Shown piece after piece: positions 1,521-58,759 of a stretch of DNA of 64,000 nucleotides. A program made the translations under genes and the position numbers. The stretch lies in contig METE01000001.1 in assembly GCA_001771275.1 (NCBI GenBank), forward strand, positions 55,158 to 119,157. The letters run 5' to 3'. Source of the stretch: a candidate division Kazan bacterium RIFCSPLOWO2_01_FULL_48_13. GTDB lineage: Bacteria; Patescibacteriota; Kazan-3B-28; UBA10110. The notes beneath the pieces were generated by a model that made no database searches, had not been told where the DNA came from, and worked only from the letters and a program-made list of their open reading frames with translations. How positions within the stretch are numbered: the stretch's first letter is position 1; every line of letters begins with the position of its first letter.

Positions 1521-1744
1521 AGGTCAGAATTAATCCCGTTAGAGATCACCTAACGGCAACCCCGTTTCGAGCGGTGTAAATATTAACTTTATCAATAATA
1601 TCTCTATCTGTATCTCCTATAGTACTAAGTGTTACGATAGGTTGCCTATCTCTAACGGGATTAAGCGCTGTTTACATTATAGCCGAATGGTCATAACTAA
1701 AAAATCCCTCGCTACGAGAGATTTTTTAGGCTGTCTGCAAGCTA

Positions 1745-4529: not shown

Positions 4530-5342
4530 GCCTATTGGCAGGGCTATCTCTGCCTAACCCTCCTATTTGACGAGGCGCTTGACACATTCAGGCGCCTTTT
4601 GTAACATAGAGCTTGTCGCTATGGGACAGGCTAAAACCCGTCCTATCGAGATACTACTTTGAAAAATCTGCTTACCCCCACTCAAACTTCCGCTGGAAAT
4701 ATTTGATTCATTCTATCCCTAATAGCCCAGCAAAGGATGGAGGGGTCGGCCTCGCCTTGAGGTCGGTAAGCAGCATGTCATAATGTACAAGTAGCCGTCA
4801 GGAGGCCATTTATGGTGCAGCAGCTGAAGCTTCCTTGTACTCCCCTTGATTGAAAAATTTTGAAGAATAACTTGTTGCCCTTTAGGTCGTCGCCCTACAT
4901 CAGCTCCCAGGTAGCTGGAGCTAAATAACGGCGGCGATCGTCAAGCAACGATTTAACAGGGTTTGCCTCATCGGCGCAGTGGTCTATCACTTTTAGTGAG
5001 GGTCGCCAAATTTTTCTATTCGGTGGCCTCGACTGGCTGGGCGCTGCGAAAAATGCTCCCGCCCGATGGCGCTATAAACCCCAGCAGTTATTTCTAAGGA
5101 ATTCTCATCAAGGGAAACCAGCCCCCCAAAGCTCAGAATCCAAAAATACCACGACCACATCTACTTCTTGCCACAAGAAAAGGACGGACGGTCATTCGTC
5201 ACATCGACGAGGTAATACGGGTTACTGCGCCGCGGGGGGCGCTTTTTTACCCCGTTAGAAATCCGCCCTGTTCTGCTATCGGCAGAACACGGCTTACAAC
5301 CGCCTCAAGGCGGTTTATTTGTAACGGGGTAAATCTGTTAAT

Positions 5343-5515
5343 ATAAAGATACTTGTCCCGTTAGAAATCACTTATCGGGACAATCGCAATAAACCTAAGG
5401 TTAAATATAGACGCTAAGCAGATTTGGAAGAGACTTGTCCCGTTAGAAATCACTTATCGGGACAATCGCAATAAACCTAAGGTTGAATATAGACGCTAAG
5501 CAGATTTCTAACGGG
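5343..5515 (+). promoter_or_regulatory. Tandem duplicated ~84-nt leader element ending ...AGATTTCTAACGGG|ATG at the thrS start
   Basis: Two near-identical units: ACTTGTCCCGTTAGAAATCACTTATCGGGACAATCGCAATAAACCTAAGGTT(A/G)AATATAGACGCTAAGCAGATTT. Each contains the hairpin GTCCCG-N15-CGGGAC and the long-range inverted repeat CCCGTTAGAAATC/GATTTCTAACGGG. Confidence 0.6.
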
Positions 5516-7294
5516 ATGGCTAAAGTACAACGCACTAAGAAAACCGATAAGACAAGTGGACTCTCGACCATCCGACATTCGGCCAGTCACATCATGGCCG
5601 AGGCTATTCTTAATTTATATCCTGAGACCAAGTTGGGATTTGGCCCGGCCACCGAGGACGGTTTTTACTATGATTTTGATTTTAAGACGCCTATCACTGA
5701 CGAAGATCTAACTAAGATCGAAGCCGAGATGATCCAGCTGATCGGCCTTGGCCGCACCTTTGAGCGAAGTGAAAAAACTATTACCGAAGCCCTCAAGTGG
5801 GCCGATAAAAATAATCAATCATATAAGGCAGATCTAATTGGTCGGTTAAAAGAGAGGGGCGAAAAAAAAGTTTCTTTCTACACATCGGGTAAATTTACAG
5901 ATCTATGCGAAGGACCGCATATTAAATCGACTAAGGCGATCGGTGCTTTTAAGCTGCTAAGTTTAGCGGGCGCTTATTGGCATGGCAACGAAAAAAATCC
6001 CCAGCTAACTCGTATCTATGGTACCGCTTTTGCAACTCAAAAAGAATTAGACGAATACTTGGTACTGCTCGAAGAGTCCAAAAAAAGAGATCATCGTAAA
6101 TTAGGAAAGGAACTGGAGCTGTTTGCTTTTGATGATGATGTGGGACCCGGCCTGCCATTGTGGCTGCCCAAAGGCACCGTAATAGTCGAAGAACTGGAAA
6201 AATTGGCTAAAGTTACTGAATCCGCCAATAACTATCTGCGCGTGCGCACCCCGCACATCGCCAAGGAATCGATGTATAGGACATCCGGCCATCTGCCCTA
6301 TTACGAGGATACGATGTATCCGCCGATGGAGATGGAGGGCACCAAGTACTACCTTAAGGCGATGAACTGTCCGCATCACCATAAGATATTTGCGGCTATG
6401 CCCAGGAGCTACCGAGATCTGCCGCTGCGGTTGGCTGAATATGGCACCTGTTATCGCTACGAAAAATCGGGCGAGCTGATGGGTTTAATGCGCGTACGGA
6501 TGCTGTCGATGAACGATGCCCACATCTACTGTACTAAAGTGCAGTTCGCCGCCGAGTTTGAGGCGGTAAACCAGATGTATATAAAATATTTTAAATTGTT
6601 TGGCATCGATAAGTATGTGATGCGCTTCTCCACCCATGATCCAGAAAAATTGGGCCAGAAATATGTGGACGAGCCCAAGCTGTGGCAAGAGACCGAGGCA
6701 TTAGTGAGGAAGGTGCTCAAAGAATCTAAAATCCCGTATGTGGAGGTGCCTAACGAAGCCGCTTTTTACGGCCCCAAGATTGATGTGGAAGTCTGGAACA
6801 CCATCGGCCGCGAATTTACCCTGGCTACCAATCAGGTTGATTTTGCCCAGCCCCGCCGATTTGGCCTTACCTACACCAACGAAAAAGGCGAACCCGAAAT
6901 CCCCTTGTGTATCCACCGGGCGCCCCTGGGCACTCACGAGCGATTTATCGGATTCTTGATCGAACACTATGCTGGCGCGTTTCCATTTTGGTTGGCGCCG
7001 GTACAGGCGATGATCACTCCAATCAGCGACAAACAGAATAAATATGCAACCCAACTACTGCAACGATTAAAAACCGCTGGGGTAAGAGCGGAATTAGATG
7101 ATAGAAATGAATCGTTAGGTCGAAAAATTCGTGACGCAGAGGTCCAAAAAGTCCCGCTGGTATTAGTTATCGGTCCAAAAGAAGTTGAATCAAAATCGGT
7201 CACTCTACGCGACCGAGACAAAGGCGATTTGGGTAGTTTGCCGATCGAAGACGCTATCACACGCCTACAACAGGCGGCTGATCAGGTCCGTTGA
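5516..7294 (+). CDS. thrS: Threonine--tRNA ligase
   Basis: Class II aaRS with TGS/second-additional-domain N-terminus, HRKLGKELELF, YGTCYRYE and an anticodon-binding C-terminus. The ORF track starts at 5483, but its first 11 codons are the upstream repeat, so 5516 (MAKVQR...) is the likely start. Confidence 0.9.
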   Translation: MAKVQRTKKTDKTSGLSTIRHSASHIMAEAILNLYPETKLGFGPATEDGFYYDFDFKTPITDEDLTKIEAEMIQLIGLGRTFERSEKTITEALKWADKNNQSYKADLIGRLKERGEKKVSFYTSGKFTDLCEGPHIKSTKAIGAFKLLSLAGAYWHGNEKNPQLTRIYGTAFATQKELDEYLVLLEESKKRDHRKLGKELELFAFDDDVGPGLPLWLPKGTVIVEELEKLAKVTESANNYLRVRTPHIAKESMYRTSGHLPYYEDTMYPPMEMEGTKYYLKAMNCPHHHKIFAAMPRSYRDLPLRLAEYGTCYRYEKSGELMGLMRVRMLSMNDAHIYCTKVQFAAEFEAVNQMYIKYFKLFGIDKYVMRFSTHDPEKLGQKYVDEPKLWQETEALVRKVLKESKIPYVEVPNEAAFYGPKIDVEVWNTIGREFTLATNQVDFAQPRRFGLTYTNEKGEPEIPLCIHRAPLGTHERFIGFLIEHYAGAFPFWLAPVQAMITPISDKQNKYATQLLQRLKTAGVRAELDDRNESLGRKIRDAEVQKVPLVLVIGPKEVESKSVTLRDRDKGDLGSLPIEDAITRLQQAADQVR

Positions 7295-7956: not shown

Positions 7957-8167
7957 ATAACCCCACTGTCATCCTAAAAACACTCATGCCAATAAAAAAT
8001 ATCAAATATAAAATAAAAAACTACCCCCTCTTGTCATCCTGAAAACACCTTACTGGGCCAAAGGCTCCACTTTGGGGCCGTAGGCTCTATAAAATAACTT
8101 ATTCAGGATCTAGGCCTGGATTCCCAATGTCGAGTTGCCTGCAGCACTCGGCTCTGGAATGACAGGA
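7957..8167. repeat. Mosaic palindromic repeat cluster
   Basis: GTCATCCTGAAAACACCTTACTGGGCCAAAGGC...GGGGCCGTAGGC...ATAACTTATTCAGGATCTAGGCCTGGATTCC...GGAATGACAGG. Confidence 0.7.
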
Positions 8168-8195
8168 AGGGCAGTAGCAAAGTAAAGTAAACTTT

Positions 8196-9098
8196 ATGAA
8201 ATCTAAACCCAAAGCGGTAGTTATCTTAGGACCAACTTCGTCTGGTAAAACCGAGATGTCAATTAAGTTGGCCAAACAATTTAATGGCGTTATTATCTCG
8301 GCCGATTCCCGCCAGTTTTATAAAGGGTTAGATATTGCTACAGCTAAAACCACAAAGGATCAGCAAGGTGGCATCCCCCACTATATGATCGACATCGCCA
8401 CTCCCGAGCAAGATTTTAGCCTTAGCCTATACCAAACTACGGTTTACAATCTACTCAACACCATTAATCGGTGGAATTGGATTAGACCTAAAAAAACCCT
8501 GCCCTTTATTGTTGGTGGCACTGGGTTATATATCCAAGCCATCGTGGACGGCTATCAGTTGCCCCGGGTGGCCCCCAACCCCAAACTGCGAGATGAGCTC
8601 AATCAACTGCCGCTGACAGATTTAATTAAAAAGTTAGAAAAGCTCGATCAAAAATCGACAGTGGATTTTAAAAATAAACGCCGCGTAGTGAGAGCAATCG
8701 AGATATTAACTTCTTCGGGTGAATTTGAGCGAAAAGCTAAGCCACCAGATTTTAATTTTTTACAGATTGGCATTAAAAAAGATCCGGCAGAACTTAACCG
8801 CCGCATTCATCAAAAGATTTTAGCGATGCATGATGCTGGCATCGTTAAAGAAACTAAAGCGCTCATCGATCAAGGAGTGGATTTTAGCCAACCCGCTTTC
8901 TCGGCTTTGGGGTATCATCATCTGCGAGATTATCTTAAGGGTAAACTAACCCTCAAACAAGCTTTAGAAAAAATGGAGTCTGATACTAAAAAATTTGCCA
9001 AGCGGCAGATGACCTGGTTTAAACGCGACCAACGCATCCATTGGATTAGTCGCCTGAGTGAAGCCGAAGAATTAATTAAAACTTTCCTAAAAAGTTAG
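8196..9098 (+). CDS. miaA: tRNA dimethylallyltransferase
   Basis: ILGPTSSGKTEMSIKLA...ISADSRQFYKGLDIATAK; IPP transferase family, 300 aa. Confidence 0.85.
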   Translation: MKSKPKAVVILGPTSSGKTEMSIKLAKQFNGVIISADSRQFYKGLDIATAKTTKDQQGGIPHYMIDIATPEQDFSLSLYQTTVYNLLNTINRWNWIRPKKTLPFIVGGTGLYIQAIVDGYQLPRVAPNPKLRDELNQLPLTDLIKKLEKLDQKSTVDFKNKRRVVRAIEILTSSGEFERKAKPPDFNFLQIGIKKDPAELNRRIHQKILAMHDAGIVKETKALIDQGVDFSQPAFSALGYHHLRDYLKGKLTLKQALEKMESDTKKFAKRQMTWFKRDQRIHWISRLSEAEELIKTFLKS

Positions 9099-9099
9099 G

Positions 9100-9860
9100 G
9101 CGCATTCTTTTGTCATCCTAAGGAACTCACCTATCGTCCTTCTGGCAAGTCCGATGCGTCGGACCGCTCCGCCAGCTGGCGGACAGAATCTTATAATTGA
9201 CGACGTTTACCCTGCGTCGTCATCCTCGCCTCGTCGGGGATCGTATACAAGATTCTGGAGTCGCTTCACTCCCCAGAATGACGACATGGAGATTGCGGAG
9301 CCTGTCCCGAGCGAAACGAGGGATCTCTGTCTTCTCGCAATGACAAAAAAGAAGTCATCCTGAAAACCCTCATGCCAATAAAAAATATCAAATATAAATA
9401 ACCCCCAACCGTCATCCTGAAAACACTTTACTGGGCCAAAGGCCCCCCTTTGGGGCCGTAGGCTATATAAAATACCCCCAACCGTCATCCTGAAAACACT
9501 TTACTGGGCCAAAGGCCCCCCTTTGGGGCCGTAGGCTATATAAAATAACCCCCAACCGTCATCCTGAAAACACTTTACTGGGCCAAAGGCCCCCCTTTGG
9601 GGCCGTAGGCCTATATAGATAACTTATTCAGGATCCAGGCCTGGATTCTCGGGTCAAGCCCGAGGATGACAAAAAATAGCCCGGGGATGACAAAGAAGTG
9701 GCCCAATGATACCCCTCGCACTGTCATCCTGAAAACACTTTACTGGGCCAAAGGCCCCCCTTTGGGGCCGTAGGCTTATATAGATAACTTATTCAGGATC
9801 CAGGCCTGGATTCCAGATCGAGTCTGGAATGACAAAATAGCAGCCTCAGAATGACAACAG
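9100..9860. repeat. Large mosaic repeat cluster including a 3x tandem ~70-bp unit (9401-9625)
   Basis: Unit CCCCCAACCGTCATCCTGAAAACACTTTACTGGGCCAAAGGCCCCCCTTTGGGGCCGTAGGCTATATAAAATA is repeated three times head-to-tail with no spacers. Region 9640-9800 is nearly identical to 29860-30060. Confidence 0.8.
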
Positions 9861-9879
9861 AAGTTGTTAATAAGCATCA

Positions 9880-11583
9880 TTAGGGTAAGCGATAGCCTAA
9901 ATTATTATCGTCGGAGTATTGTAATACATACCCTACCCCTTTTAAATACTGCTCATAAATCGTCACGGAATTATTCGTGAGATATTTTTTATGTATTACT
10001 ACCCAATCAGTTTTCCATTTAGTTGGAAAATCATTAGACAATAAGTTAAAACTATTGGCGGAGTTAGCATCCGCTAACGGCAACTGGTCATCACTATAAA
10101 AATCAAAGGTAGAACGCTGGGTGCGCGAAACGCTGCCGATTGCCAGCTTTTTCTGGTGGTAAGTGCCGTAGTAGGCAAACAACGAGATAAATTTGCCTTT
10201 GTCCCAATAGCCCGAATTAATCCCCCACGGGATATCCAGCACCGAAGAAGCTTTGGCATCATTCTTAATTGTTTGATACACCGGCGGAATAGATAGATCG
10301 ATCAGCGGATAAGGAATCGGTAGGAATTCGATCAGGATAAGCACCACCGCTGCCCCGCCCAACCAGCGGCGGCGTTGGGGTAGACGACTAATTGCCATCC
10401 CGATTAGAATGGCCAGACAGAACATCACCATTACCGAGAAGCGCGCCGGCACTCGCCAGCTGCCCCACCCTTCCCACCAGCTGTAAAGCCACAGATATGG
10501 GAGGGAGATGCCGGTAACATGATCTAATCCCTTGAGATGCGGACCAAACGAAAGTATCCCAAACACCGCTCCCAGCACTACCCAGAACCACGGGCTGACA
10601 GAAAAATTTAGTTTAACTCGGCGGCAAATCAGACTGATCAGAAAAATTAAGCCGATCAGCAGGGCGGTCCAGCTCAAGAAGATGGTGTTCTCCACCCCGC
10701 CGGCAAAGGGCCCCGGGATCTTAGCGGCCAAGCTTCCCCACCACGGATGGAGCTGGCTGGGAACAAAATAACGCGCCAAGTCGGCCGAATAAAAATCAAT
10801 TGCCTGAGCGCTTAAAACTTCCGGCGATCCGACTGCGCTGTTTTCTTTGAAGGCCGGGATCAGCCAGATCGACCAGACCGCTATCCAGACCAGGGCCATC
10901 ACCAATCCGCGGCTTAGTAATCTAATGCGATCCGCTACTGAACGAGTAGCGATCAGCTGCCAAATCGCCCAAACAATAATAAAAACAAACAGAAAAATAA
11001 AATTATAGATATCATTTACTGATGCCAGACCGGCCACCAAGCCGGCTGTGATTGGTATCCACCACTGCCGATTCTTAGGCAGTTTTAATACCAGCCAAAC
11101 ACATAACGGGATAAACCATAGGGTGATCAGGTTATAGTGGCCGTAGGCGTGCCTCATAATGTATGGGCTAAACCCAAACAGCACCCCAGCCACCCAGCCA
11201 CCCAAATTTGAACGGGTAATATCTCTAACCACTATGAACATCAGCCAAGCGGTTAACGCGAGCGATAACAGGAAATGGAGATTAAAAGCCATAATGGTAT
11301 TGATCAGCAAAGACAGTCCGGCGATGATCGCCGAATTAACCAATGTCAGCGTATGAAAAACCAAGCTAACGGTCTGCGGATAAAAGATTTGGTCGGTCGA
11401 AAACAGCGAGGCAGAATTAAACCAAACTTGCTTGAGCCACCAAACATCCCACAAAAATAGTGGCGCATCGCCGCCGACTCCCAGAATATGCGAAGGCAAA
11501 TGCAAAATTAGTGGCCAGGTCATCGCCACAACCAAAATTAGATAACCAACAAAGGTCCAAAAAAATAATTTACGCCTATTCAT
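9880..11583 (-). CDS. Polytopic membrane protein, putative GT-C-fold glycosyltransferase
   Basis: 567 aa, more than 10 predicted TM helices plus a C-terminal soluble domain; the N-terminal WPL...GGDAPLFLWDVWW loop resembles PMT/ArnT-like families. Confidence 0.45.
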   Translation of the reverse strand: MNRRKLFFWTFVGYLILVVAMTWPLILHLPSHILGVGGDAPLFLWDVWWLKQVWFNSASLFSTDQIFYPQTVSLVFHTLTLVNSAIIAGLSLLINTIMAFNLHFLLSLALTAWLMFIVVRDITRSNLGGWVAGVLFGFSPYIMRHAYGHYNLITLWFIPLCVWLVLKLPKNRQWWIPITAGLVAGLASVNDIYNFIFLFVFIIVWAIWQLIATRSVADRIRLLSRGLVMALVWIAVWSIWLIPAFKENSAVGSPEVLSAQAIDFYSADLARYFVPSQLHPWWGSLAAKIPGPFAGGVENTIFLSWTALLIGLIFLISLICRRVKLNFSVSPWFWVVLGAVFGILSFGPHLKGLDHVTGISLPYLWLYSWWEGWGSWRVPARFSVMVMFCLAILIGMAISRLPQRRRWLGGAAVVLILIEFLPIPYPLIDLSIPPVYQTIKNDAKASSVLDIPWGINSGYWDKGKFISLFAYYGTYHQKKLAIGSVSRTQRSTFDFYSDDQLPLADANSANSFNLLSNDFPTKWKTDWVVIHKKYLTNNSVTIYEQYLKGVGYVLQYSDDNNLGYRLP

Positions 11584-12364: not shown

Positions 12365-12735
12365 ATCTGTCATCTTGAGTTTTACTGCGTCATACCCTCT
12401 TTTTTATTCGTCATTCCCGCCCCCGATCGTAGTCGAGAGTAAACTCCGGCGGCTTCCGGCTCTGAGAGCCTCCAGCTCGGAGAGGAATCCAGACATTAAA
12501 CTAAATAAATTATCATCCTGAGTTTTTGCTGTCATTTTAAGTTTTTTCTTGTCATCCTGAGTTTTTTAGCCACTCCCACATATCCCCTCTCGTCATCCTG
12601 AAAACACTTTACTGCTGTAGGCTATTATATAGATAACTTATTCAGGATCCAGGCCTGGATCCTCGGGTCCCCAGTAGTCGCGGGGCAGGCAAGCCCGAGG
12701 ATGACAAAAAAGGGCGAGAATGACGATGGGGGCGG
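12365..12735. repeat. Mosaic palindromic repeat cluster
   Basis: Multiple GTCATCCTGA / GGATGACA / GAATGACG modules plus the CAGGATCCAGGCCTGGATCCTCGGG module. Confidence 0.7.
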
Positions 12736-13846: not shown

Positions 13847-14766
13847 ATCTTTTTAGCCAAAATAAATACGCTACTGCCAAATGGCAGGCTGATATATCTA
13901 ATCAGCCACGCTTCTATCCAGCCTAAACCGATCAATAACCGGCTGATGGGATGGGGCGCAGCATTATACCCGGCTCCCCGGCCTAAACTTTTGGCCAGCA
14001 GCCGCTGGGCTACGAAGATCGGGAAGGTAAACATAAATACATACGAAGAAAATATCGGTTTAAATCCAGCTTGGGAAAGTTTAGCTGCTAACTTGCTTAA
14101 GGTATAGCGGCGCTGATGCAACAAGGCTTTATCATGCGGGCCATACAGCCACTGATACGCCGGTACGGAGATCGCCACACACCCACCAATGGTTAGAACA
14201 CGATGCCACTCTTTAAGCGCCGCTTCATCATCTAACAGATGTTCCAATACATCGAAAGCGGTGATCAGATCGATCGATTCATCCGGCCGAGGCAATTGCA
14301 GAGCATCGCCCTGTTCCGCTTCCCCGTGCTGCTTGGCCGAAACCAGCGCCACCTCGCTTTGATCAATGCCAGTAACCTTTCCCCACCGCCGCAAGAACTC
14401 TAAATTAAAACCCCCGCCGCACCCCACATCCAATATCTCCATTCCTTTTGTTGAAGCGTCATTGCGAGTAATCTCCCCCCATTTTGTCATTCCAGACTCG
14501 ATCTGGAATCCAGGCCTGGATCCTGAATCCGAACTTGGCCCTTGGCCAGTCGGTCCAGGATGACACATCAAGTCGTTATTCTGGGTAGGCCGTTCTCCAT
14601 CGTCATTCTGGGGAGTCCGTCGGCTGACGGACGACTCCAGAATCTTAGGATTATCAGATTCTAATAGCCACTTGTCTAATATCGAACGCCAGACCAGCCT
14701 CCGGCAGATATGCCACCAGTAAAACTGCTCCTGTTCGCCCATTTCGGCTACATCGCTTTCTTGCAT
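13843..14766 (-). CDS. Class I SAM-dependent methyltransferase (N-terminal region contains translated repeat element)
   Basis: ILDVGCGGGFNLEFL, ITAFDVLEHL. Residues ...MCHPGPTGQGPSSDSGSRPGFQIESGMTK... are encoded by the palindromic repeat at 14441-14700, so the true start may be a downstream Met such as MEILDVG. Confidence 0.55.
   Translation of the reverse strand: MQESDVAEMGEQEQFYWWHICRRLVWRSILDKWLLESDNPKILESSVSRRTPQNDDGERPTQNNDLMCHPGPTGQGPSSDSGSRPGFQIESGMTKWGEITRNDASTKGMEILDVGCGGGFNLEFLRRWGKVTGIDQSEVALVSAKQHGEAEQGDALQLPRPDESIDLITAFDVLEHLLDDEAALKEWHRVLTIGGCVAISVPAYQWLYGPHDKALLHQRRYTLSKLAAKLSQAGFKPIFSSYVFMFTFPIFVAQRLLAKSLGRGAGYNAAPHPISRLLIGLGWIEAWLIRYISLPFGSSVFILAKKI
14441..14700. repeat. 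Palindromic repeat modules lying in-frame in the 5' part of the methyltransferase ORF
   Basis: GTCATTCCAGACTCGATCTGGAATCCAGGCCTGGATCCTGAATCCGAACTTGGCCCTTGGCCAGTCGGTCCAGGATGACA followed by GTCATTCTGGGGAGTCCGTCGGCTGACGGACGACTCCAGAATC. Confidence 0.75.
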
Positions 14767-14929
14767 ACCCCTATTCTACCCTGATAGTAGAAATTGTCAT
14801 GGCTTCGCCCCTCCCTCGTCATTCTGGTAAGTCCGTCAGCTGACGGACGCATCCAGAATCTCAGGATTAATAAGATCCTGGACAAGCCAGGATGACGAGA
14901 GGGGGTTCAAGAGAGGTTTGAATTATAGG

Positions 14930-18965: not shown

Positions 18966-19320
18966 CCACCCGCGCCAATAAAAAATATCAAATATAAAAT
19001 AAAAAATCACCCCCTTTTTGTCATTCCCGAGCCGAGTGCCGTAGGCAACTCGACATCGGGAATCCAGGCCTGGATCCTGAATCCGAACTTGGCCTTTGGC
19101 CAGTCGGTCCAGGATGACACCTCTTTTGTTATTCCTGTCCACTTCGTCATTCTGGGGAGTCCGTCGGCTGACGGACGACTCCAGAATCTTGTATACGATC
19201 CCCGACGAGGCGAGGATGACGACGCAGGGTAAACGTCGTCAATTATAAGATTCTGGGCGCATTTGCCATGGGCAAATTTGCCGGAATGACGGAAGGTGAG
19301 TCGGGCAGGATGACAGCAGG
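18966..19320. repeat. Mosaic palindromic repeat cluster
   Basis: CATGCCAATAAAAAATATCAAATATAAA module; GTCATTCCCGAG...GGAATCCAGGCCTGGATCCTGAATCCGAACTTGGCC...CCAGGATGACA; GTCATTCTGGGGAGTCCGTCGGCTGACGGACGACTCCAGAATC; GGGTAAACGTCGTCAATTATAAGATTCTGG. Confidence 0.75.
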
Positions 19321-21028: not shown

Positions 21029-22642
21029 TTAGTTAAGCTTAGTTGTGAGAACTCGACCAAATAGCCAGCAATTATTGTCTTGATATAGTGCTTCCCAGCC
21101 ATCGGAGTTACGCAGAAAATACTGCGCAAATTGACTTTGTTTTTTAATCAAGATTAAATCGGCCTTATATTTATTTAAGATGGCTGTGGTCGGCTCATCC
21201 TCTACCGATAACGAGGTGTACTCCTTGAATAGATTTTGAGTGGGAGTCTGCCAGATTGCCATCCGCCCATCAATAAATACCGGTTTTTCGGGCAGCTGCC
21301 AGATTAGATAACCACCCCAGCCATACTCGTTAAACAAGTTACCAGGCAGGTGATGCTCTTTTATATACTGCACTGCGCCCACTGGATAGCCGGCGGCCCT
21401 GAACAATGATTCTTGATTGGTCGATAGGGGCACCACGCTGAGAGATTGAACATAACCGTAGTATCCCACCCCAATCAATAAGGCAAATCCTATCCAGACC
21501 GATCGAGTATAGTAGCTAATGCCGGCTGGTAGCAATACGGCAACGGCATCGGCTAAGAGTGGTAAAGTAACTAATGGGAATAACGGCATATTTCGCCAGC
21601 TGCTGATAGAAATTACAAAAAATACTATCCCAATAAATATTTTAGTGCCATCCATTTTACGCCAACTCATCAGCACAAATATCGCTAACAAGATTGCATA
21701 GATCAGTAGATTAAAGCCATTAACGCTGCCTAAATCCACCGGTAGCCATTCCGAGATATTAGATTTAACTAAATCGTTAAAGACCGTTCTAACAAATTCC
21801 TCATACACTCGCCAAGTGTATGGATTAACCAGAGTCACCGCACCCGACAACAGACCCACCCAGACTAACTGCCACAACTCTTTAGCCGATAGAAATCCAG
21901 CTCCTTTTGTCATTCCAGACTCGATCTGGAATCCAGGCCTGGATCCTGAATCCGAACTTGGCCCTTGGCCAGTCGATCCAGGATGACAGTTTTGTAATTT
22001 AGGATGACGCCCAGACCGCTTCCATATATACTTAGCCAACTCAAACACTCCAAACGCGCCCATTAAAATTAGCCCAGCCATAAATCCACCATGCAGATTT
22101 ACCCAGATCAGCATCAAGGGGATCAGCCAAAATATTAATTTGTTTTCTGGCTTTTCTCGCCATCGAAATAGAATCCACAAGATAGCCGCCAACCCTAATA
22201 ATGTAATCAGCTGAGGCCGGACTCCCACGATTGGGTAAGCTACTAATATGGCAATCAGTGTGGTCAACACGGTCGCTGGCCAACTAACCCGGGATACCCG
22301 AGAGGCCAATAGATAGGCGGCGACGGCGATCAAGGCAAATAAAACTACTAAAAATAATAGGCCCCAATAATGTGACCCAAGATATAGTAGCACATCAGTT
22401 AGCCACTCGTGCGATATCCACGGATAGCCCGGCATAGTATACGAGTAGCTGTCGCCCCGCGGGACTCCAAATTTTAAGATATCTTCCCCGTTTCTAAGAT
22501 GCCAGCCCAAATCCGGATCACGAGGTGAACGCAAGGTTAATAAAAAAGCCAATGTTAAAGTGAGTGCTATAAACGATCGATCACGCAGAATCGCCACTTT
22601 TGACGAGAATCTATTCATTGCCTGTATTAATAAATTTAACAT
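21029..22642 (-). CDS. Polytopic membrane protein, 'DPDLGWHLRNG' family (putative GT-C-like), with in-frame repeat insertion
   Basis: 537 aa; paralog of 17419 and 43514 (conserved FNEYGWGGYLIWQLPEKPVFIDGRM). The segment ...LQNCHPGSTGQGPSSDSGSRPGFQIESGMTKGAGF... is absent from the paralogs and is encoded by the repeat at 21908-22010. Confidence 0.55.
   Translation of the reverse strand: MLNLLIQAMNRFSSKVAILRDRSFIALTLTLAFLLTLRSPRDPDLGWHLRNGEDILKFGVPRGDSYSYTMPGYPWISHEWLTDVLLYLGSHYWGLLFLVVLFALIAVAAYLLASRVSRVSWPATVLTTLIAILVAYPIVGVRPQLITLLGLAAILWILFRWREKPENKLIFWLIPLMLIWVNLHGGFMAGLILMGAFGVFELAKYIWKRSGRHPKLQNCHPGSTGQGPSSDSGSRPGFQIESGMTKGAGFLSAKELWQLVWVGLLSGAVTLVNPYTWRVYEEFVRTVFNDLVKSNISEWLPVDLGSVNGFNLLIYAILLAIFVLMSWRKMDGTKIFIGIVFFVISISSWRNMPLFPLVTLPLLADAVAVLLPAGISYYTRSVWIGFALLIGVGYYGYVQSLSVVPLSTNQESLFRAAGYPVGAVQYIKEHHLPGNLFNEYGWGGYLIWQLPEKPVFIDGRMAIWQTPTQNLFKEYTSLSVEDEPTTAILNKYKADLILIKKQSQFAQYFLRNSDGWEALYQDNNCWLFGRVLTTKLN
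21908..22010. repeat. Palindromic repeat element inserted in-frame inside the CDS 21029..22642
   Basis: GTCATTCCAGACTCGATCTGGAATCCAGGCCTGGATCCTGAATCCGAACTTGGCCCTTGGCCAGTCGATCCAGGATGACAG...AGGATGACG; same module as 14468-14570. Confidence 0.8.
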
Positions 22643-25589: not shown

Positions 25590-25660
25590 CCCCTCCACTT
25601 CATTCCGTCATTCTGGCAAATCCGTCAGCTGACGGATGCGTCCAGAATCTTTACAATGAA
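25590..25660. repeat. Palindromic repeat module (GTCATTCTGGCAAATCCGTCAGCTGACGGATGCGTCCAGAATC) immediately upstream of the GIY-YIG gene
   Basis: Same hairpin module as at 14800-14850, 19140-19190 and 26090-26140. Confidence 0.75.
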
Positions 25661-25663
25661 CTC

Positions 25664-25975
25664 ATGATTAAGGGAGGGTTTGTTTATATTATGGGGAGTT
25701 ATAAATTAACTCTGTACACAGGGGTAACCAATAATTTAATTCGTAGGGTATACGAACATAAATACAGCTTGGTTCCTGGATTTACAGCTAAATACAAATG
25801 CCACAATTTACTTTATTACGAGACCTCTGATTTTATAGAGCCTGCTATTATTCGAGAAAAGCAAATTAAGGATTTAAATCGAATCGATAAGATTAAACTA
25901 ATTAAAACCATCAACCCCAACTTAGAGGATTTGTACTCACAGATTCTGGGCGCGTCTGCTGACTTGCCAGAATGA
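25664..25975 (+). CDS. GIY-YIG nuclease family protein (small, YhbQ/COG2827-like)
   Basis: FVYIMGSYKLTLYTGVTNNLIRRVYEHK...LLYYE...AIIREKQIK; start taken at Met69 of the ORF-track entry. The stop codon lies inside a 60-bp unit that is tandemly duplicated downstream. Confidence 0.75.
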   Translation: MIKGGFVYIMGSYKLTLYTGVTNNLIRRVYEHKYSLVPGFTAKYKCHNLLYYETSDFIEPAIIREKQIKDLNRIDKIKLIKTINPNLEDLYSQILGASADLPE

Positions 25976-26420
25976 CGATATTAAGAGGATTTGTACTCAC
26001 AGATTCTGGGCGCGTCTGCTGACTTGCCAGAATGACGATAGAGAAATTCGGAATAATAAGACGGCGACTCAGAACGAAAAAATAAACCGTCATTCTGGTA
26101 AGTCCGTCAGCTGACGGACGCATCCAGAATCTTATATACAATTCTGGACAACTTAGAATGACGAGGAGGGTAGGATGACGATATTAAGAGGATTTGTATT
26201 CACAGATTCTGGGCGCGTCTGCTGACTTGCCAGAATGACGATGAAGAAAGATTCTGGATCACCGCTTTCGCGGGGATGACGATGAGAAGTAAACGGCGTC
26301 AATTATACGATCCTGGACGAAGCCAGGATGACGCCACAAGGTAAACGGCGTCAATTATACGATCCTGGACGAAGCCAGGATGACGCCACAAGGTAAACGG
26401 CGTCAATTATCACCTGTGAG
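25921..26420. repeat. Tandem and mosaic repeat array downstream of the GIY-YIG gene
   Basis: 60-bp unit TTAAGAGGATTTGTACTCACAGATTCTGGGCGCGTCTGCTGACTTGCCAGAATGACGATA x2 (25921-26040), with a third copy at about 26183. 54-bp unit GTAAACGGCGTCAATTATACGATCCTGGACGAAGCCAGGATGACGCCACAAG x2.4 (26289-26420). TCCGTCAGCTGACGGA hairpin at 26100. Confidence 0.8.
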
Positions 26421-26508
26421 TATGGGTTTTTGGTATAAAAAGGTTTACGCATCGCCCCCATACTCCTATACTTTTTTTGTTAATAGAGATTTAAATTCTA
26501 AGGAATAA

Positions 26509-29551: not shown

Positions 29552-29902
29552 ATGAAACAGTACTATGTTTATATCCTTGCCAGTAATCGTAACGGAACCT
29601 TGTATGTCGGGGTAACCTCTGTGTTGATTAAAAGAGTCCACGAACACAAGACGGACATCACAGCAGGGTTCACCAAAGAACACCGCGTACATCGGTTAGT
29701 ATATTACGAAGTAACCAACGACATAGAATCGGCCATTGCCCGAGAAAAACAGCTGAAATCATGGAATAGAAAATGGAAAATCGACCTGATTGAAAATACT
29801 AATCCGCAGTGGGAAGATTTATACCCGAACATTATCGGTCAAGATAGTGGCCTGGATCCTCGGGTCAAGCCCGAGGATGACAAAAGAATAGCCCGAGGAT
29901 GA
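29552..29902 (+). CDS. GIY-YIG nuclease family protein (small, YhbQ/COG2827-like); C-terminus runs into repeat array
   Basis: YYVYILASNRNGTLYVGVTSVLIKRVHEHK...LVYYE...AIAREKQLK; the last ~15 codons and the stop are inside the GGATCCTCGGGTCAAGCCCGAGGATGACAAAA repeat. Confidence 0.7.
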   Translation: MKQYYVYILASNRNGTLYVGVTSVLIKRVHEHKTDITAGFTKEHRVHRLVYYEVTNDIESAIAREKQLKSWNRKWKIDLIENTNPQWEDLYPNIIGQDSGLDPRVKPEDDKRIARG

Positions 29903-30170
29903 CAAAAAATAGCCCGAGGATGACAAAGAAGTGGCCCAATGATACCCCTCGCACTGTCATCCTGAAAACACTTTACTGGGCCAAAGGCCCCCCTTTGGGG
30001 CCGTAGGCCTATATAGATAACTTATTCAGGATCCAGGCCTGGATCCTCGGGTCAAGCCCGAGGATGACAAAAAATAGCCCGAGGATGACAAAAAATAGCC
30101 CGAGGATGACAAAGAAGTGGCCCAATGATACTAAAATGTACAGACTCAGAATGACACCAAGATAATTCAA
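29850..30170. repeat. Mosaic repeat cluster; segmental near-duplicate of 9640-9800
   Basis: AGCCCGAGGATGACAAA x5; CCTCGCACTGTCATCCTGAAAACACTTTACTGGGCCAAAGGCCCCCCTTTGGGGCCGTAGGCCTATATAGATAACTTATTCAGGATCCAGGCCTGGATCCTCGGGTCAAGCCCGAGGATGAC. Confidence 0.8.
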
Positions 30171-50829: not shown

Positions 50830-50960
50830 ATTGTCATCCTCAACCGAAGCGAAGCATACCACACATTGTCATCCTGAAAACACCTTACTGCCGTAGGCTA
50901 ATATAAATAACTTATTCAGGATCCAGGCCTGGATTCCGGATCAAGTCCGGAATGACAGAA
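50830..50960. repeat. Mosaic palindromic repeat cluster
   Basis: GTCATCCTCAACC...GTCATCCTGAAAACACCTTACTGCCGTAGGC...ATAACTTATTCAGGATCCAGGCCTGGATTCCGGATCAAGTCCGGAATGACAG. Confidence 0.7.
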
Positions 50961-50969
50961 TGGGTAGGC

Positions 50970-51263
50970 CTAAAATATCTTGCCAACCATACGAGCCAAC
51001 ACCGCGCCAAAGGCGGTGGTTTCGGCTAACAAGTTCAGACCGATCAAAGCGGCTATCATCACCACGATTAAGCCAAGCAATACTAGCAGATCACGCTTAA
51101 CATAGCCATGATGATGCGATACTGTCGCCGTTTGACCATGCGCGACAGCGGGCCGATTAACCACCGACTGCGATACGCCAATGGGCTGACTGGTGTTAGC
51201 AGACTGATACAGGTTCTGCAATCTTTGTAGTTCCCGTGCGGCTTTTTTCGCTTTCTTATTCAT
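50970..51263 (-). CDS. Small hypothetical protein with C-terminal TM helix
   Basis: 97 aa; the start codon directly abuts the ...TCTAACGGG leader element (see 51260-51345). Confidence 0.4.
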   Translation of the reverse strand: MNKKAKKAARELQRLQNLYQSANTSQPIGVSQSVVNRPAVAHGQTATVSHHHGYVKRDLLVLLGLIVVMIAALIGLNLLAETTAFGAVLARMVGKIF

Positions 51264-51345
51264 CCCGTTAGAAATCTGCTTAGCGTATATGTTTGGCTAT
51301 TGGCCTATTTCGAACGTCCCGATAAGTGATTTCTAACGGGACGAG
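51260..51345 (-). promoter_or_regulatory. Copy of the ~85-nt CCCGTTAGAAATC...GATTTCTAACGGG leader element abutting the start codon of 50970..51263
   Basis: Minus strand reads CCCGTTAGAAATCACTTATCGGGACG...AACATATACGCTAAGCAGATTTCTAACGGG|ATGAATAAG; it is the same unit as the tandem pair upstream of thrS. Confidence 0.6.
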
Positions 51346-51382
51346 TACTTCGATTATACCACACCCCGTAATGCGTCGGCGG

Positions 51383-52367: not shown

Positions 52368-52373
52368 CAAAAT

Positions 52374-52484
52374 TTGGCAACGACCTACTTTCACAACCCG
52401 AAAGTTACTATCATCGGCGCTGAAGGGCTTAACTGCTGTGTTCGAGATGGGAACAGGTGTGGCCCCTTCGCGAGAGTCACCAAG
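52374..52484 (-). rRNA. rrf: 5S rRNA
   Basis: The minus strand aligns to bacterial 5S (ACTATCATCGGCGCTGAAGGGCTTAACTGCTGTGTTCGAGATGGGAACAGGTG as the reverse complement of the conserved core). Terminal helix I is TTGGTGAC/GTCGTTGCCAA. Confidence 0.75.
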
Positions 52485-52572: not shown

Positions 52573-52878
52573 TCACTTCTTGTCTAATAGCTCGCGCAGT
52601 TTTTTGAGGTTCTCCTCCATCGAGAGGAAGACCTGCAACAGTTCGGCCGCCGCAAAAAATACAATGCCGTAAAGTACGCCGCCAATCAAAACGACCAGCG
52701 CGGACATCCACGCCGAATCATACGGCGAGGCCATGCCAACCTGGGAGATAACACCGGGGAACGCCAGCCAAATAATGGCTATAAGCAGTCCACCCAATAC
52801 ACTCACCCAAGCGAGTACCCAGAGCAACAGTATGGTAGTCTTCAGCATTTTAAATCTGCTGTTTGTATTCTTTTTCAC
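52573..52878 (-). CDS. Small two-TM membrane protein encoded in the 23S-5S spacer
   Basis: 101-aa ORF with two clear hydrophobic helices and a charged C-terminal tail (EENLKKLRELLDKK); same strand as the rRNAs. Confidence 0.4.
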   Translation of the reverse strand: MKKNTNSRFKMLKTTILLLWVLAWVSVLGGLLIAIIWLAFPGVISQVGMASPYDSAWMSALVVLIGGVLYGIVFFAAAELLQVFLSMEENLKKLRELLDKK

Positions 52879-53119
52879 CCCGTAGAAGAATTTAGAAATT
52901 ATATTCTCTTCTTGTCTTGGGCATTATCGTTTAAAAACTGCCCCATCAATAGTTGTCACAGTTATGCTTATCCGCGGAGAATATAGCTTTCGCCAAAGGC
53001 GTTCTAAATTTCTCTACGGGGCATGACACTCTTAGTTTACCACAAAAAATAACTCCAGATTCCCGCCGGAGTTTATCCCGACTAGTCGGGGCGGGAATGA
53101 CGGGTGGGAAAGAAATGTG

Positions 53120-55182: not shown

Positions 55183-56078
55183 GCCGACATCGTATGATGA
55201 TGTTCCATTATTACTAATGGCACAGACTATATCTTCACCCTGCGCCCGGATGTGGGTCTTTAGACCTACCATCCTTGGGTTGGTATAGCAGGGGCTGGCG
55301 TATTACCCTTTCATAAATGAAAGAGTTTCCCTTTTCAGGTCAGTCGTTACGGGGTCATACATAGCTTATATCGGAAGCATGGGAGAATGTGCGGCTTAAT
55401 AATTTCCAACATCGTTTTAGTACTGTCTGTACTAACACGAATTCTCCAATACTTCTTATCTCGATTGAGCAAACTTTTTATCCTGAATGTTCTCCACAAT
55501 ATTGTCTGTAAGAGCTGCTGCTCTGCCATACTAAATTGTTGAGTGTTGAGATAAAAAGCCGAACGGATCTTGGAGCCATCATCCATAAACCATACGGCTA
55601 AAGACAATGGATCAAGTTCGAGATTAGACGGCACACTTTTCTTCCCTGACCCATAGAACCAATTATAGTAACTGGTAATGGTAGGAATACTTTGTGTGGT
55701 AAACCGATACGCAACACGGCTCCCGTTACCTGGACGGGTTTTGGGCGGGGTTAGAACATACAATCGAAAATGCTGCCATTTCCAATCCACATATTCTCGA
55801 TACTTAAACGAATGATTCACTTCCAATAGAGCATCTATGCGCGTGCCCTGCCGGCGTAATGTCCCATCGCCAAGCAAAGTCCCAACCAAAATTGCGTGTT
55901 GAGCTGATGATAGACTTCCCACGGTATTGCCCCCGTTCATATTATCCAATCCTGGACAAGGCCAGGATGATGATGTAAAGAATACACCATTATTTTACCA
56001 CTTGATGAACGGTTGGGTTCCACCGTTATAAGCCAAATTTTTGGTACAGAATCACTTCTGTAGCACCCCAATGTCTTA
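55183..56078 (-). mobile_element. Group I intron 3 in 23S within GTTTGGCACCT|CGATGTCGG (E. coli about 2500); encodes LAGLIDADG endonuclease
   Basis: Exon blocks GTTTGGCACCT (56079-56089) and CGATGTCGGCC (55174-55182) are separated by about 0.9 kb. S-like element (rc of AGACTATATCTTCACCC at 55228). Exact junction uncertain by 1-2 nt. Confidence 0.6.
55347..55949 (-). CDS. LAGLIDADG homing endonuclease (intron 3)
   Basis: HAILVGTLLGDGTLRRQG (LAGLIDADG-type motif); 200 aa. Confidence 0.65.
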   Translation of the reverse strand: MDNMNGGNTVGSLSSAQHAILVGTLLGDGTLRRQGTRIDALLEVNHSFKYREYVDWKWQHFRLYVLTPPKTRPGNGSRVAYRFTTQSIPTITSYYNWFYGSGKKSVPSNLELDPLSLAVWFMDDGSKIRSAFYLNTQQFSMAEQQLLQTILWRTFRIKSLLNRDKKYWRIRVSTDSTKTMLEIIKPHILPCFRYKLCMTP

Positions 56079-56928: not shown

Positions 56929-56946
56929 ACCCGACAAGGAATTTCG

Positions 56947-57682: not shown

Positions 57683-57691
57683 GCAGCTTTC

Positions 57692-57722
<31 letters not shown>

Positions 57723-58728: not shown

Positions 58729-58759
<31 letters not shown>

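Follow-up and report, generated by a model that had tools for sequence, protein, structure and literature searches.

The repeat upstream of thrS in this Kazan bacterium is probably a member of a previously undescribed family of small mobile elements that occurs in many bacterial phyla. Considering all of the comparisons together, we find it likely that the repeat units in the window (the 64-kb stretch of DNA analyzed here) are copies of a non-autonomous, MITE-like mobile family which inserted at gene starts, with two of them, elements B and C, serving as leaders. The repeat anatomy, target duplications, empty sites, start-codon adjacency, orientation bias, and enrichment of in-frame ATG codons were directly observed; the elements would have been mobilized in trans by a transposase. 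Neither the repeat sequence nor a description of such an element was found in the searchable literature.

Repeat Elements in the Window

Four loci in the window, labeled A to D, are each bounded by CCCGTTAGARAT and ATYTCTAACGGG. Sequences within two mismatches of CCCGTTAGARATC occur 13 times (8 of the 13 are exact copies), compared with a mean of 2.5 in shuffled sequences, none of which reached 13 in 100 shuffles. The features of these loci are listed here, with gene starts inferred from open reading frames (ORFs).

1534-1660, minus strand: element D, terminal repeats TCCCGTTAGAGAT / ATCTCTAACGGGA (G/C variant), 99-nt interior
5250-5329, plus strand: element A, terminal repeats CCCCGTTAGAAAT / ATTTGTAACGGGG, one mismatch in the right arm
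5339-5344, plus strand: predicted -10 box TAATAT preceded by TGT, read from the sequence
5351-5432, plus strand: element B, tandem unit 1, with ACTTGT, left terminal repeat, internal CGGGAC, and variable center
5433-5515, plus strand: element B, tandem unit 2, an intact Kazan-type unit of 83 nt whose CGGG end abuts the thrS ATG (5516)
5516-7294, plus strand: thrS, threonine--tRNA ligase, 592 aa, without the N-terminal TGS domain
50970-51263, minus strand: gene encoding a 97-aa protein that is conserved among Kazan relatives and has a hydrophobic stretch at the C terminus
51264-51346, minus strand: element C, 83-nt Kazan-type unit, with ACTCGT at 51341-51346 and terminal repeats at 51328-51340 and 51264-51276
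51353-51358, minus strand: predicted extended -10 box TGGTATAAT, located 6 nt before element C begins

The preliminary description had reported an inverted-repeat leader at thrS, at the minus-strand gene, and at the sugar-transferase gene, and it is present at or near the positions given for all three. There are indeed two tandem units at thrS, but their period is 82 nt rather than about 84 nt. The second ends in GATTTCTAACGGG directly before ATGGCT (ATG at 5516), as reported, and the reverse-oriented copy at 51264-51340 abuts ATGAATAAG of the minus-strand gene, whose ATG occupies 51263-51261. The variant at the sugar-transferase gene (1535-1659) exists, with an interval of 99 nt instead of the reported 95 nt, and ends 14 nt before the GTG. 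The internal hairpin (GTCCCG-N15-CGGGAC, at 5355-5381 in element B) and the 13-bp long-range stem are both found.

Units 1 and 2 of element B share 98% identity, and element C is 82% identical to the thrS unit across 91 nt. The right terminal repeat of unit 1 is cut off after AGATTT, and the junction in a sister species (L131) is built in the same way. The number of tandem units at thrS is 1, 2, or 3 among otherwise near-identical contigs; such tandem copies break assemblies, and because one contig (METC01000027) has an N gap inside the repeat, the variation in number may be partly an assembly effect.

Element A, directly upstream of the thrS units and with a degenerate right arm, had been missed. 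It lies between an intrinsic terminator (5227-5248) and the thrS promoter, and is missing from the homologous spacer in two relatives (L130 and L131). Its cargo is predicted to form a GC-rich three-way junction (-48.6 kcal/mol, z = -10), the last hairpin of which is followed by UUUAUUU and resembles a terminator (site at 5298-5315). The same architecture, built from other stem sequences, occurs in Elusimicrobia and Patescibacteria copies. The cargo of element A is terminator-like. Element D, in the 5′ region of the sugar-transferase gene (GTG at 1520), is flanked by TTAA at 1530-1533 and 1661-1664, with a TATAAT (1676-1681) and the RNase P RNA terminator upstream; it would be an ordinary insertion with a TTAA duplication.

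A Family Shared by Many Phyla

Species-representative genomes were scanned with the pattern CCCGTTAGARAT-N40-70-ATYTCTAACGGG, and at least 120 stretches matched. This sample leans toward intact copies, because two perfect arms and a spacer of 40-70 nt were required. Hosts among the matches listed include Patescibacteria, Planctomycetota, Deltaproteobacteria/Thermodesulfobacteriota, Omnitrophota, and Elusimicrobia, along with Nitrospiraceae, KSB1, WOR-3, and others, with some of the matches on contigs of up to 1.2 Mb. Like MITEs, family members are short (47-125 bp), contain no ORF, and carry terminal repeats, here the 13-nt YCCCGTTAGARAT, around a variable interior. They are also multi-copy, with four loci in 64 kb here and several per 8-kb locus elsewhere (e.g. 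L044 and L036). That the 13-nt repeat is nearly identical from one phylum to the next is not typical of MITEs and could reflect a host-level constraint instead.

The terminal inverted repeat has the consensus (C/T)CCCGTTAGA(A/G)AT and, across 120 copies among the matches listed, grows by one complementary base in 97%. In the same 120 copies, the next four flanking bases form direct repeats (71-84% per position, against 43-45% for neighboring bases). A perfect 4-bp duplication, mostly TNNA, flanks 77 of 121 copies among the matches listed, with TGAA in 29 and TAAA in 22.

Subfamilies carry unrelated cargo. Kazan-type units comprise nine copies of 83 ± 1 nt, all abutting an ATG, with conserved ends, a variable 29-nt center, and imperfect inverted repeats of about 27 nt. 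A metagenome scan with a Kazan-type 25-mer matched four contigs only, adding further copies that are too few for a census. Many copies, among them a 93-nt deltaproteobacterial subfamily, are intergenic and away from starts; BLAST with this subfamily returned nothing from plasmid or phage collections, and a BLAST search of IMG/VR gave only three matches.

A 13-nt sequence so highly conserved near promoters and starts across many phyla could also be read as paired operator half-sites for a conserved DNA-binding protein, which would define a regulon. We find this scarcely credible, as the half-site spacing is variable (about 23-99 nt), the genes next to the copies have unrelated functions, and target duplications and empty sites exist. 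Moreover, in each copy the inner positions of the two arms covary (GAGGT/ACCTC, GAAGT/ACTTC, and others), which fits pairing or common descent and not a fixed protein site.

Empty Sites and Mobility

Precise empty sites were found in related species for elements D, B, and C. At element D, L130 and L131 have a single TTAA and flanks of equal length. The site of element B is empty in L130 (TACAAT-AGAGCT-ATGGCA) and filled in L080 and L131 (TATAAT-ACAGGT-[83 nt]-ATGGC), and in a ThrS tree L130 is nested among filled relatives. That of element C is empty in L139, L140, and L142 (TGGTATAAT-N6-ATGAGT) and filled in L141 and the window; its TGGTATAAT -10 box is conserved in filled and empty orthologous sites alike. 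Elements B (at thrS) and C (at the small membrane protein gene) are exact 83-nt insertions between position -1 and the A of the ATG.

Judged against these empty sites, B and C have no target duplication, and copies of their type have an additional, conserved ACYYGT at the left end. Neither feature is explained by simple DDE cut-and-paste transposition. ACYYGT is unlikely to be a mutated copy of the duplication, since it is identical at nine genes with differing second codons.

The proposal in the preliminary description of a mobile promoter or leader module is thus supported as to mobility, on the grounds of the duplications, the empty sites of D, B, and C, the multi-phylum distribution, and the variable interiors. 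The promoter is not part of the element in the window copies, as the -10 box belongs to the host DNA immediately upstream, which the empty sites also have. We also considered an internal promoter, with a -10 box sought at a fixed distance from in-element ATGs or the main ATG, but do not claim one because the spacing is inconsistent and the right-arm ATTTCT makes a poor match to a -10 box.

About 1 Mb of loci and the window yielded neither an autonomous copy nor a transposase, and no TnpA or TnpB gene lies near the elements. Intact repeat pairs 250-4,000 nt apart were sought in all loci; each one found merely combined arms of small copies that are separate from one another, and none enclosed an ORF. 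A Pfam scan of 20 large window ORFs gave no transposase domain (6 of the 20 had no Pfam match of any kind), and all-versus-all clustering of 788 ORFs from 120 loci revealed no recurrent neighboring protein family.

These data also bear on recombination sites as an explanation, either as attC-like boundaries of integron cassettes or as a small promoter switch that inverts between flanking inverted repeats. Imperfect palindromes of 47-125 bp with conserved ends, variable centers, and GTTAGA/TCTAAC cores fit such sites, as do the location at gene boundaries and the presence of several copies within a few kb (L044, L036). We nevertheless consider them very improbable. The polarity of attC is 5′-RYYYAAC...GTTRRRY-3′, the reverse of the 5′-GTTAGA...TCTAAC-3′ seen here on both strands, and with no recurrent neighboring protein either, an integron attC site was rejected. 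Neither an integrase nor any other recurrent neighbor accompanies the 120 loci, whose hosts are housekeeping genes such as thrS and murE. Against an inverton, all nine thrS-carrying contigs have the element in one orientation, and site-specific inversion would need a longer interior than 51 nt. Neither system is expected to leave 4-bp duplications.

Adjacency to Start Codons

The cassette had been described as shared at translation starts, and this association proved general. An ORF of at least 60 codons begins at offset 0 on 52 of 231 element sides, compared with 0-3 at each offset from 1 to 12. Zero spacing to an ORF start was seen in 52 of 121 copies among the matches listed, and in Patescibacteria in 45 of 65 listed loci (69%). 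Copies flanked by TGAA lie at ORF starts in 34 of 45 cases, against 8.6% expected from the available TGAA sites (P about 2 × 10−27). Orientation is also strongly biased, with gene-adjacent copies containing internal CGGG only in 24 cases and CCCG only in 1.

By their construction, the element ends appear to make an insertion at the start of a gene tolerable. A terminal A or G joined to a duplication beginning with TG remakes an ATG or GTG flush with the element, and native SD-like or -10-like signals lie upstream of the left (original) copy of the start codon. The left arm is open in the frame of that original codon. In the frame of the gene, the right arm (ATT-TCT-AAC-GGG) contains no stop and reads I-S-N-G; its second frame contains a TAA, and in its third frame an overlapping TGA arises. 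Among the copies that regenerate GTG only, 13 of 20 have an internal in-frame ATG open into the gene (3.3 expected; 0 of 2,000 shuffles), compared with 4 of 33 ATG-type copies (5.5 expected).

Leaderless Genes and a Candidate 5′ Leader

In 17 of 90 Kazan genes, exactly 6 nt separate the end of a -10-like hexamer from the ATG, and no SD peak was seen. Judging from these sequence signals, genes in this bacterium would typically be leaderless (-10 box, 6 nt, ATG). The same -10/N6 geometry is found upstream of most of the 12 copies with an ACYYGT left end. At thrS, the first base of element B (A5351) is the predicted transcription start because the -10 box sits 6 nt upstream. Since elements B and C lie between -1 and the A of the ATG, leaderless genes have probably become leadered through their insertion.

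Given the upstream -10 box, the host promoter most likely now transcribes the element as an 83-nt 5′ leader. In it, the imperfect inverted repeats of about 27 nt would pair into a long helix reaching the AUG and taking in part of it, and a competing 5′-terminal hairpin (GTCCCG...CGGGAC) would take up the left arm. In RNA folds the long stem dominates, with 17-23 predicted base pairs that take in the AUG via wobble pairs. A regulatory role for this pairing beside, and partly with, the AUG is plausible from the models, and the helix may affect translation or mRNA stability. Of the RNA structure and covariation analysis suggested in the preliminary description, folding predicts the long stem; no pair of this predicted helix covaries, and for that reason nothing specifically supports an RNA structure.

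We weighed the converse, that the unit is a host-encoded cis-regulatory RNA leader with alternative helices, conserved for translation initiation or mRNA stability, next to which the flanking repeats are incidental. Several points fit it: the modeled helix stops exactly at the AUG and the predicted 5′ hairpin is mutually exclusive with it; the terminal ~31 and 23 nt are almost invariant among orthologous thrS copies, with a center that has diverged by ~40-50% as judged by eye; orientation relative to the gene is strongly biased; and the element has been kept at thrS in several Kazan lineages. However, the 4-bp direct repeats are statistically clear, the empty site of element D is a textbook case, many copies lie between genes and off starts (the 93-nt deltaproteobacterial subfamily among them), cargo is unrelated across subfamilies, and the predicted helix shows no covarying pair. 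We therefore think a purely host-encoded leader unlikely, though a leader role would be compatible with secondary domestication of a mobile element.

A thrS-specific autoregulatory leader was excluded because the module also precedes murE, the small membrane protein gene, and others, and the closest sister does not have it at thrS. The E. coli thrS operator and the Gram-positive T-box are likewise structured leaders before thrS, next to the start codon. The module here differs in lacking an anticodon-like loop, in preceding unrelated genes, and in being absent from the thrS of a sister species. The observation that no anticodon-like loop is evident was upheld, as we found none, nor any T-box or other Rfam match: the whole window at gathering thresholds and both element regions at E ≤ 10 returned no family, with chance-level matches only.

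Returning to the mobile family, we tentatively entertain a stronger version in which a cross-phylum family actively homes in on the opening nucleotides of a transcript or ORF and its 83-nt type has been domesticated; this is possible, though we would not presume it. The target would be +1 to +6 in leaderless Patescibacteria genes and the ATG plus codon 2 elsewhere. Evolution would have shaped the ends so that expression of an interrupted gene continues: the start codon is regenerated, two frames allow termination-reinitiation, and the third gives an in-frame fusion. The 83-nt type would insert exactly at +1 without duplication, possibly via another route, open-complex-directed or RNA-templated. 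Once domesticated, it would act as a 5′ leader and turn leaderless genes into regulated, leadered ones.

Comparison with Known Elements

Correia/NEMIS of Neisseria, ERIC/IRU, RUP, and similar elements are tiny, ORF-less, multi-copy bacterial MITEs. They resemble the present family in their terminal inverted repeats, short target duplications, and location in 5′ regions, and are co-transcribed with neighboring genes and able to fold into long hairpins with effects on expression. In contrast to Correia-type MITEs, which duplicate TA and are confined to the genus level, the family here has an unrelated repeat sequence, a 4-bp (TNNA) duplication, and a multi-phylum distribution. Its ends regenerate the start codon, 69% of listed Patescibacteria loci are flush with an ORF start, and one subfamily inserts exactly at +1 of predicted leaderless genes without duplication. 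MITEs are reviewed in PMC3184786 and PMC10969869.

Rickettsia palindromic elements (RPEs) are also small, palindromic, mobile, and tolerated in genes via in-frame translation, to which the in-frame I-S-N-G of the right arm and the in-frame ATG of the 13 GTG-type copies correspond here. RPEs occur throughout coding regions in one genus, whereas this family is concentrated at the first two codons or the transcription start in many phyla.

IS1380 and piggyBac-like DDE transposons have a 4-bp duplication with T...A ends and termini beginning with CCC. The 4-bp duplication (TTAA at element D) and CCC termini here are similar; the duplication here is TNNA and not strictly TTAA, and no transposase was found.

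Palindrome-associated transposable elements of the IS200/IS605-derived kind (PATE) have no terminal inverted repeats and no duplication, and insert 3′ of a fixed tetra- or pentanucleotide. Only the Kazan-type copies are comparable, as they have no duplication, always lie beside ATG (CAT when read on the opposite strand), and carry a single subterminal hairpin, at one terminus only. The wider family has 4-bp duplications and true terminal inverted repeats, which Y1-transposase elements lack, and a PATE identity was rejected for the family as a whole. REP/REPIN with RAYT, in which a ~35-nt palindrome with a conserved GTAG head and no target duplication accompanies a Y1 RAYT gene, was also rejected; the architecture differs, duplications are present, and no associated gene was found. 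A CRISPR-like repeat-spacer arrangement was considered and rejected as well.

Implications

Common to Patescibacteria, Planctomycetota, Thermodesulfobacteriota, and other uncultivated phyla, this family would, if the mobile reading is true, be among the most widely distributed small mobile-element families known. Its behavior would also be unusual, in that it lands on start codons or transcription starts and the start codon is repaired by the terminal base of the element. It would provide a concrete case of mobile DNA adding 5′ leaders, upstream ORFs, and new N-termini to housekeeping genes, and likewise terminators or promoter-proximal hairpins in streamlined genomes, as well as a route by which leaderless genes become leadered. 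For annotation, gene callers would set starts at the regenerated ATG or GTG or inside the element. The conserved 13-mer is a simple probe of recent gene flow among groundwater and sediment lineages.

A Second Repeat Family

The preliminary description also missed a second family, CCCCGTAGARRAATTTAGAA, which is related to the main one and has two copies in the window, flanking the 23S rRNA region.

52878-53021, unstranded: second family copy 2a, terminal repeats CCCCGTAGAAGAATTTAGAA / TTCTAAATTTCTCTACGGGG
60606-60750, unstranded: second family copy 2b, in the opposite orientation to 2a, with TCCA as flanking 4-bp duplication

In Kazan bacterium 44_14 (L132), an element of this second family abuts the thrS ATG.

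Inverted-repeat elements in the window

The arm sequence CCCGTTAGARATC occurs 13 times in the window at up to 2 mismatches, compared with a mean of 2.5 in shuffled sequences, none of which (0/100) attained 13. These occurrences group into four loci, each a copy of an ORF-less element whose inverted-repeat arms enclose a variable interior, or cargo.

Element copies in the window
A, 5250-5329: one mismatch in the right arm
B, 5351-5515: two 82-nt tandem units, 98% identical to each other
C, 51264-51346, minus strand: directly abuts the ATG of gene 50970-51263
D, 1534-1660, minus strand: arm is a G/C variant, interior of 99 nt

The inverted-repeat leader units reported in the preliminary description are present in the sequence. 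All three of its copies were confirmed, while copy A had been overlooked. The two tandem units ending at the thrS ATG stand, at 82 nt each and not ~84; the variant arm before the GTG at 1520 was also recovered, with an interior of 99 nt and not 95. The second unit of B ends in CGGG, followed without a gap by the thrS ATG at 5516, and C is 82% identical to B across 91 nt. Element D ends 14 nt before its GTG and adds a structured 125-nt block to the 5' region. The cargo of copy A is terminator-like, with the U-tract supplied by the arm (ATTTCT).

The window's ThrS is 100% identical to a protein of Kazan bacterium RIFCSPHIGHO2_01_FULL_49_10 (Patescibacteria). Among nine contigs encoding identical ThrS, the tandem number at thrS is 1, 2, or 3; because an N gap interrupts the repeat in one of the three-copy contigs, assembly may account for some of these differences. 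A sister species, L131, also has two diverged units at thrS with the same junction structure as the window's, which indicates that the tandem copies are real.

A multi-phylum family of miniature elements

The finding extends well beyond the window. Scanning one genome per GTDB species with the pattern CCCGTTAGARAT-N40-70-ATYTCTAACGGG returned at least 120 matching stretches, a sample skewed to intact copies. The matches listed span many Patescibacteria classes, Planctomycetota, Deltaproteobacteria/Thermodesulfobacteriota, Omnitrophota, Elusimicrobia, Nitrospiraceae, KSB1, WOR-3, Stahlbacteria, and Edwardsbacteria, with Gammaproteobacteria and Clostridia represented by single MAGs; contigs of 0.1-1.2 Mb carry several of them. 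Element interiors are wholly unlike one another from subfamily to subfamily. A 93-nt deltaproteobacterial subfamily has two GC hairpins, a GC-rich three-way-junction subfamily of 66-80 nt includes window copy A and keeps its pairing while stem sequences vary among copies, and an AT-rich group occurs in Patescibacteria.

The arms, in turn, are constrained as pairs. The A/G position of one arm agrees with the T/C position of the other in 119 of 120 listed copies, and further copies in the same loci carry inner-arm variants (GAGGT/ACCTC, GAGTT/AACTC, GAAGT/ACTTC, GAAAG/CTTTC, GAGAC/GTCTC) in which the two arms of a copy are always mutually complementary. Clusters of 3-4 copies in ~3 kb were observed in a Planctomycetaceae MAG (L044, 4459-7345) and a Buchananbacteria MAG (L036, 2011-5141); in these, one copy is a 47-nt mini-element, and others lie within a TTGAC -35 box or directly past a -10 box.

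Target duplications and empty sites

The flanks of the 120 listed copies define the ends of the element. The first base beyond CCCG is complementary at both ends in 97% of them, extending the arm to YCCCG...CGGGR. Outside this arm, four bases form a direct repeat (83, 71, 78, and 84% agreement per position), while the bases bordering this 4-bp repeat agree at merely 43-45% and the remaining registers are at background. The duplication is perfect in 77 of 121 listed copies, most often TGAA (29), TAAA (22), TCCA (6), or TCAA (5), and the consensus among the matches listed is TNNA.

Insertion is confirmed by empty sites for D, B, and C. At D, GCGC-TTAA-[T CCCG...CGGG A]-TTAA-TTCTGACCTGTG in the window corresponds to GCGT-TTAA-TCCCGACTTGTG in two related species, where TTAA is single and the flank has equal length. 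At B, the relative L130 (ThrS 84% identical) is empty, CCCCTACAAT-AGAGCT-ATGGCA, and L131 and L080 (contig META01000002, Kazan RBG_13_50_9) are filled, CCCCTATAAT-ACAGGT-[ACTTGT CCCG...CGGG]-ATGGC. At C, the relatives L139, L140, and L142 read TGGTATAAT-N6-ATGAGTAAG, and an 83-nt unit separates N6 from the ATG in L141 and the window. In the ThrS tree, empty L130 is sister to filled L131, with the filled window outside the pair; this pattern implies precise deletion, recombinational replacement, or repeated gain at one site. The upstream region of thrS in L080 is almost base-for-base that of L130, and its ThrS has an N-terminus resembling the window's with an overall identity of just 54%, suggesting that the catalytic core may have been recombined or replaced.

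These elements make up a family of miniature mobile elements, undescribed so far and spread over multiple phyla, with a marked association with start codons and transcription starts. With 4-bp duplications across the family and empty sites for D, B, and C, the earlier suggestion of a mobile leader module was essentially right. The family has the features of MITEs except for a known autonomous partner; an autonomous partner or transposase was sought in the loci and the window, and none was found. A 4-bp duplication with T..A ends, together with CCC termini, hints at a possible link to the IS1380/piggyBac group. Correia/NEMIS-like elements are alike in size, position, and hairpin potential, and Rickettsia RPEs in their partial translation. 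Searches of Rfam, of phage and plasmid collections, and of the searchable literature gave no match.

Several other identities were ruled out: attC sites (the element's core runs in the opposite polarity, and no integrase turned up in the loci), REP/REPIN, IS200/IS605 PATE (for the wider family, by its duplications), and a thrS operator or T-box.

Association with gene starts

The association with starts is marked, and of mechanistic interest. Scoring ATG/GTG/TTG codons that open ORFs of at least 60 codons, with starts inferred from ORFs, we found a start at offset 0 on 52 of 231 element sides among the matches listed, compared with 0-3 at each offset from 1 to 12. Start-flush loci make up 45/65 of those listed in Patescibacteria and 6/46 in other named phyla; members of the deltaproteobacterial subfamily lie mainly between genes, at GTAAAC sites. 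Start adjacency arises because the terminal A/G of the element followed by a TG-initial duplication creates a flush ATG/GTG. The association nevertheless exceeds sequence preference: ORF starts account for 34 of 45 listed TGAA-flanked copies, yet predicted starts hold just 8.6% of the available TGAA sites in the same loci (intergenic plus start codons; binomial p about 2e-27).

The left copy is the original start codon: RTGNNY is present in the left flank of 37 of 53 listed gene-adjacent copies, and spacing signals fit that copy (SD-like at 5-8 nt, -10-like at 6-7 nt). Alternative registers include one insertion whose TATG duplication encloses the ATG, and insertions in TTGAC -35 boxes, where the duplication restores the box. 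Gene-adjacent copies also have an orientation bias: in 24, a partial third copy of the arm (AACGGGR) sits close to the arm farther from the gene, and in 1 the arrangement is reversed.

Several features hint that expression survives insertion. The left arm (CCC GTT AGA AAT) has no stop in the original start's frame, and the right arm (ATT TCT AAC GGG) has none in the gene's frame; its second frame contains TAA, and its third an overlapping TGA if codon 2 begins with A.

Predicted translation from the left start (37 copies)
Earlier stop within the element: 21
Stop at the arm TAA: 9
In-frame fusion to the gene: 7

Among listed GTG-only copies, 13 of 20 contain an interior ATG that reads in frame, without a stop, into the gene (3.3 expected; 13 attained in 0/2000 shuffles); its distance from the arm varies by eye from ~1 to 8 codons but stays in frame. 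Listed ATG-type copies had no such enrichment (4/33 vs 5.5 expected). In a single example, an element with a degenerate right arm (L049, 1264-1400) lies within the part of a type IV pilin-like gene that encodes the signal peptide. Its in-element ATG supplies the new N-terminus MITKISKRGFTLIELL (M-I-T-K-I-S-K-R-G-F-T-L-I-E-L), in which the G|FTLIE processing motif is retained.

Kazan-type units separate a promoter from its ATG

Across 90 predicted genes of the window and related Kazan contigs (L130-L134), 17 have a TANN[AT]T -10-like hexamer ending exactly 6 nt 5' of the ATG (background ~2), and there is no Shine-Dalgarno peak upstream. This organism's default layout is therefore leaderless: -10 box, 6 nt, ATG. 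B and C are insertions that part such a leaderless-type promoter from the ATG by 83 nt.

They belong to a subfamily with nine independent copies, all 83 +/- 1 nt and all adjoining an ATG, at thrS (three species), a small membrane protein gene, murE (two species), and three other genes. The unit order is ACYYGT, CCCGTTAGAAATC, ACTTATCGGGAC, a variable 29 nt, and ACGCTAAGYAGATTTCTAACGGG, so that the conserved ends are effectively ~27-nt imperfect inverted repeats. Target duplication is absent from these copies and ACYYGT is constant whatever the second codon of the gene; a plain cut-and-paste model fails to account for this. A -10-like hexamer lies 6-7 nt before the first A in most of 12 copies with an ACYYGT left end, the same geometry as at empty sites, so the host promoter should initiate at the element's first base.

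In the consensus fold, 23 pairs form a helix, and its outer pairs take in the AUG via G-U; no pair covaries, which is neutral as to an RNA role. Single-sequence folds reach -27 to -33 kcal/mol (z -3.5 to -5.4). A predicted 5' hairpin, (T)TGTCCCG/CGGGACA(A), with a seventh pair that is T-A, C-G, or T-G depending on the copy, vies with the long helix for the left arm. Judging from these layouts, transcripts of thrS and the small gene would begin with an 83-nt leader, the long helix of which ends at the AUG. Expression would then depend on the competing hairpin leaving the right arm single-stranded, on the long helix melting, or on processing at the helix base; the 5'-terminal hairpin could additionally stabilise the mRNA.

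Other repeats and structured RNAs

A second related family has terminal repeats CCCCGTAGARRAATTTAGAA. Its window copies (52878-53021 and 60606-60750, ~145 nt each) are mutually inverted on either side of the 23S rRNA region, giving ~145 nt of long-range complementarity around it; one has a 4-bp TCCA duplication. Another member adjoins the thrS ATG in Kazan bacterium 44_14 (L132, about 9800-10000).

Matches on the minus strand to RNase P RNA (1729-2498, 770 nt vs a 367-nt model) and 23S rRNA (56029-59988, 3960 nt vs 2925) are overlong, implying large insertions in both genes. A repeat with ~850-nt spacing (53488, 54357, 55197) lies in the 3.5 kb between the 23S and the 5S rRNA (52372-52484) downstream of it; no 16S rRNA was detected within the window. 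A 32-nt hairpin motif, TCCATCTCCAGTTCC...GGAACTGGGGATGGA, occurs in the RNase P RNA span (1760-1791, 2373-2404) and the 23S span (57751-57782), suggesting that an inserted module or a protein-binding hairpin is common to both.

The region 4530-5250 (plus strand), ~700 nt without a long ORF, is a candidate unannotated structured RNA. It has a promoter-like site (4579-4607), an intrinsic terminator at its end (5227-5248), partial conservation 5' of thrS in L130 and L131, and a fold z of -4.0, with no match to Rfam or tmRNA.

The window is also unusually rich in further short repeat families, chiefly intergenic and in mosaic combinations (7967-9840, 12579-12723, 14481-14905, 19036-19260, 21905-21988, 25594-26423, 29839-30131, 50855-50964, 60107-60196). 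Examples are a 73-nt unit present six times, ATTCAGGATCCAGGCCTGGA present 11 times, 21-nt tandem AGCCCGAGGATGACAAAAAAT arrays, and hairpin units with GGATGAC/GTCATCC ends.
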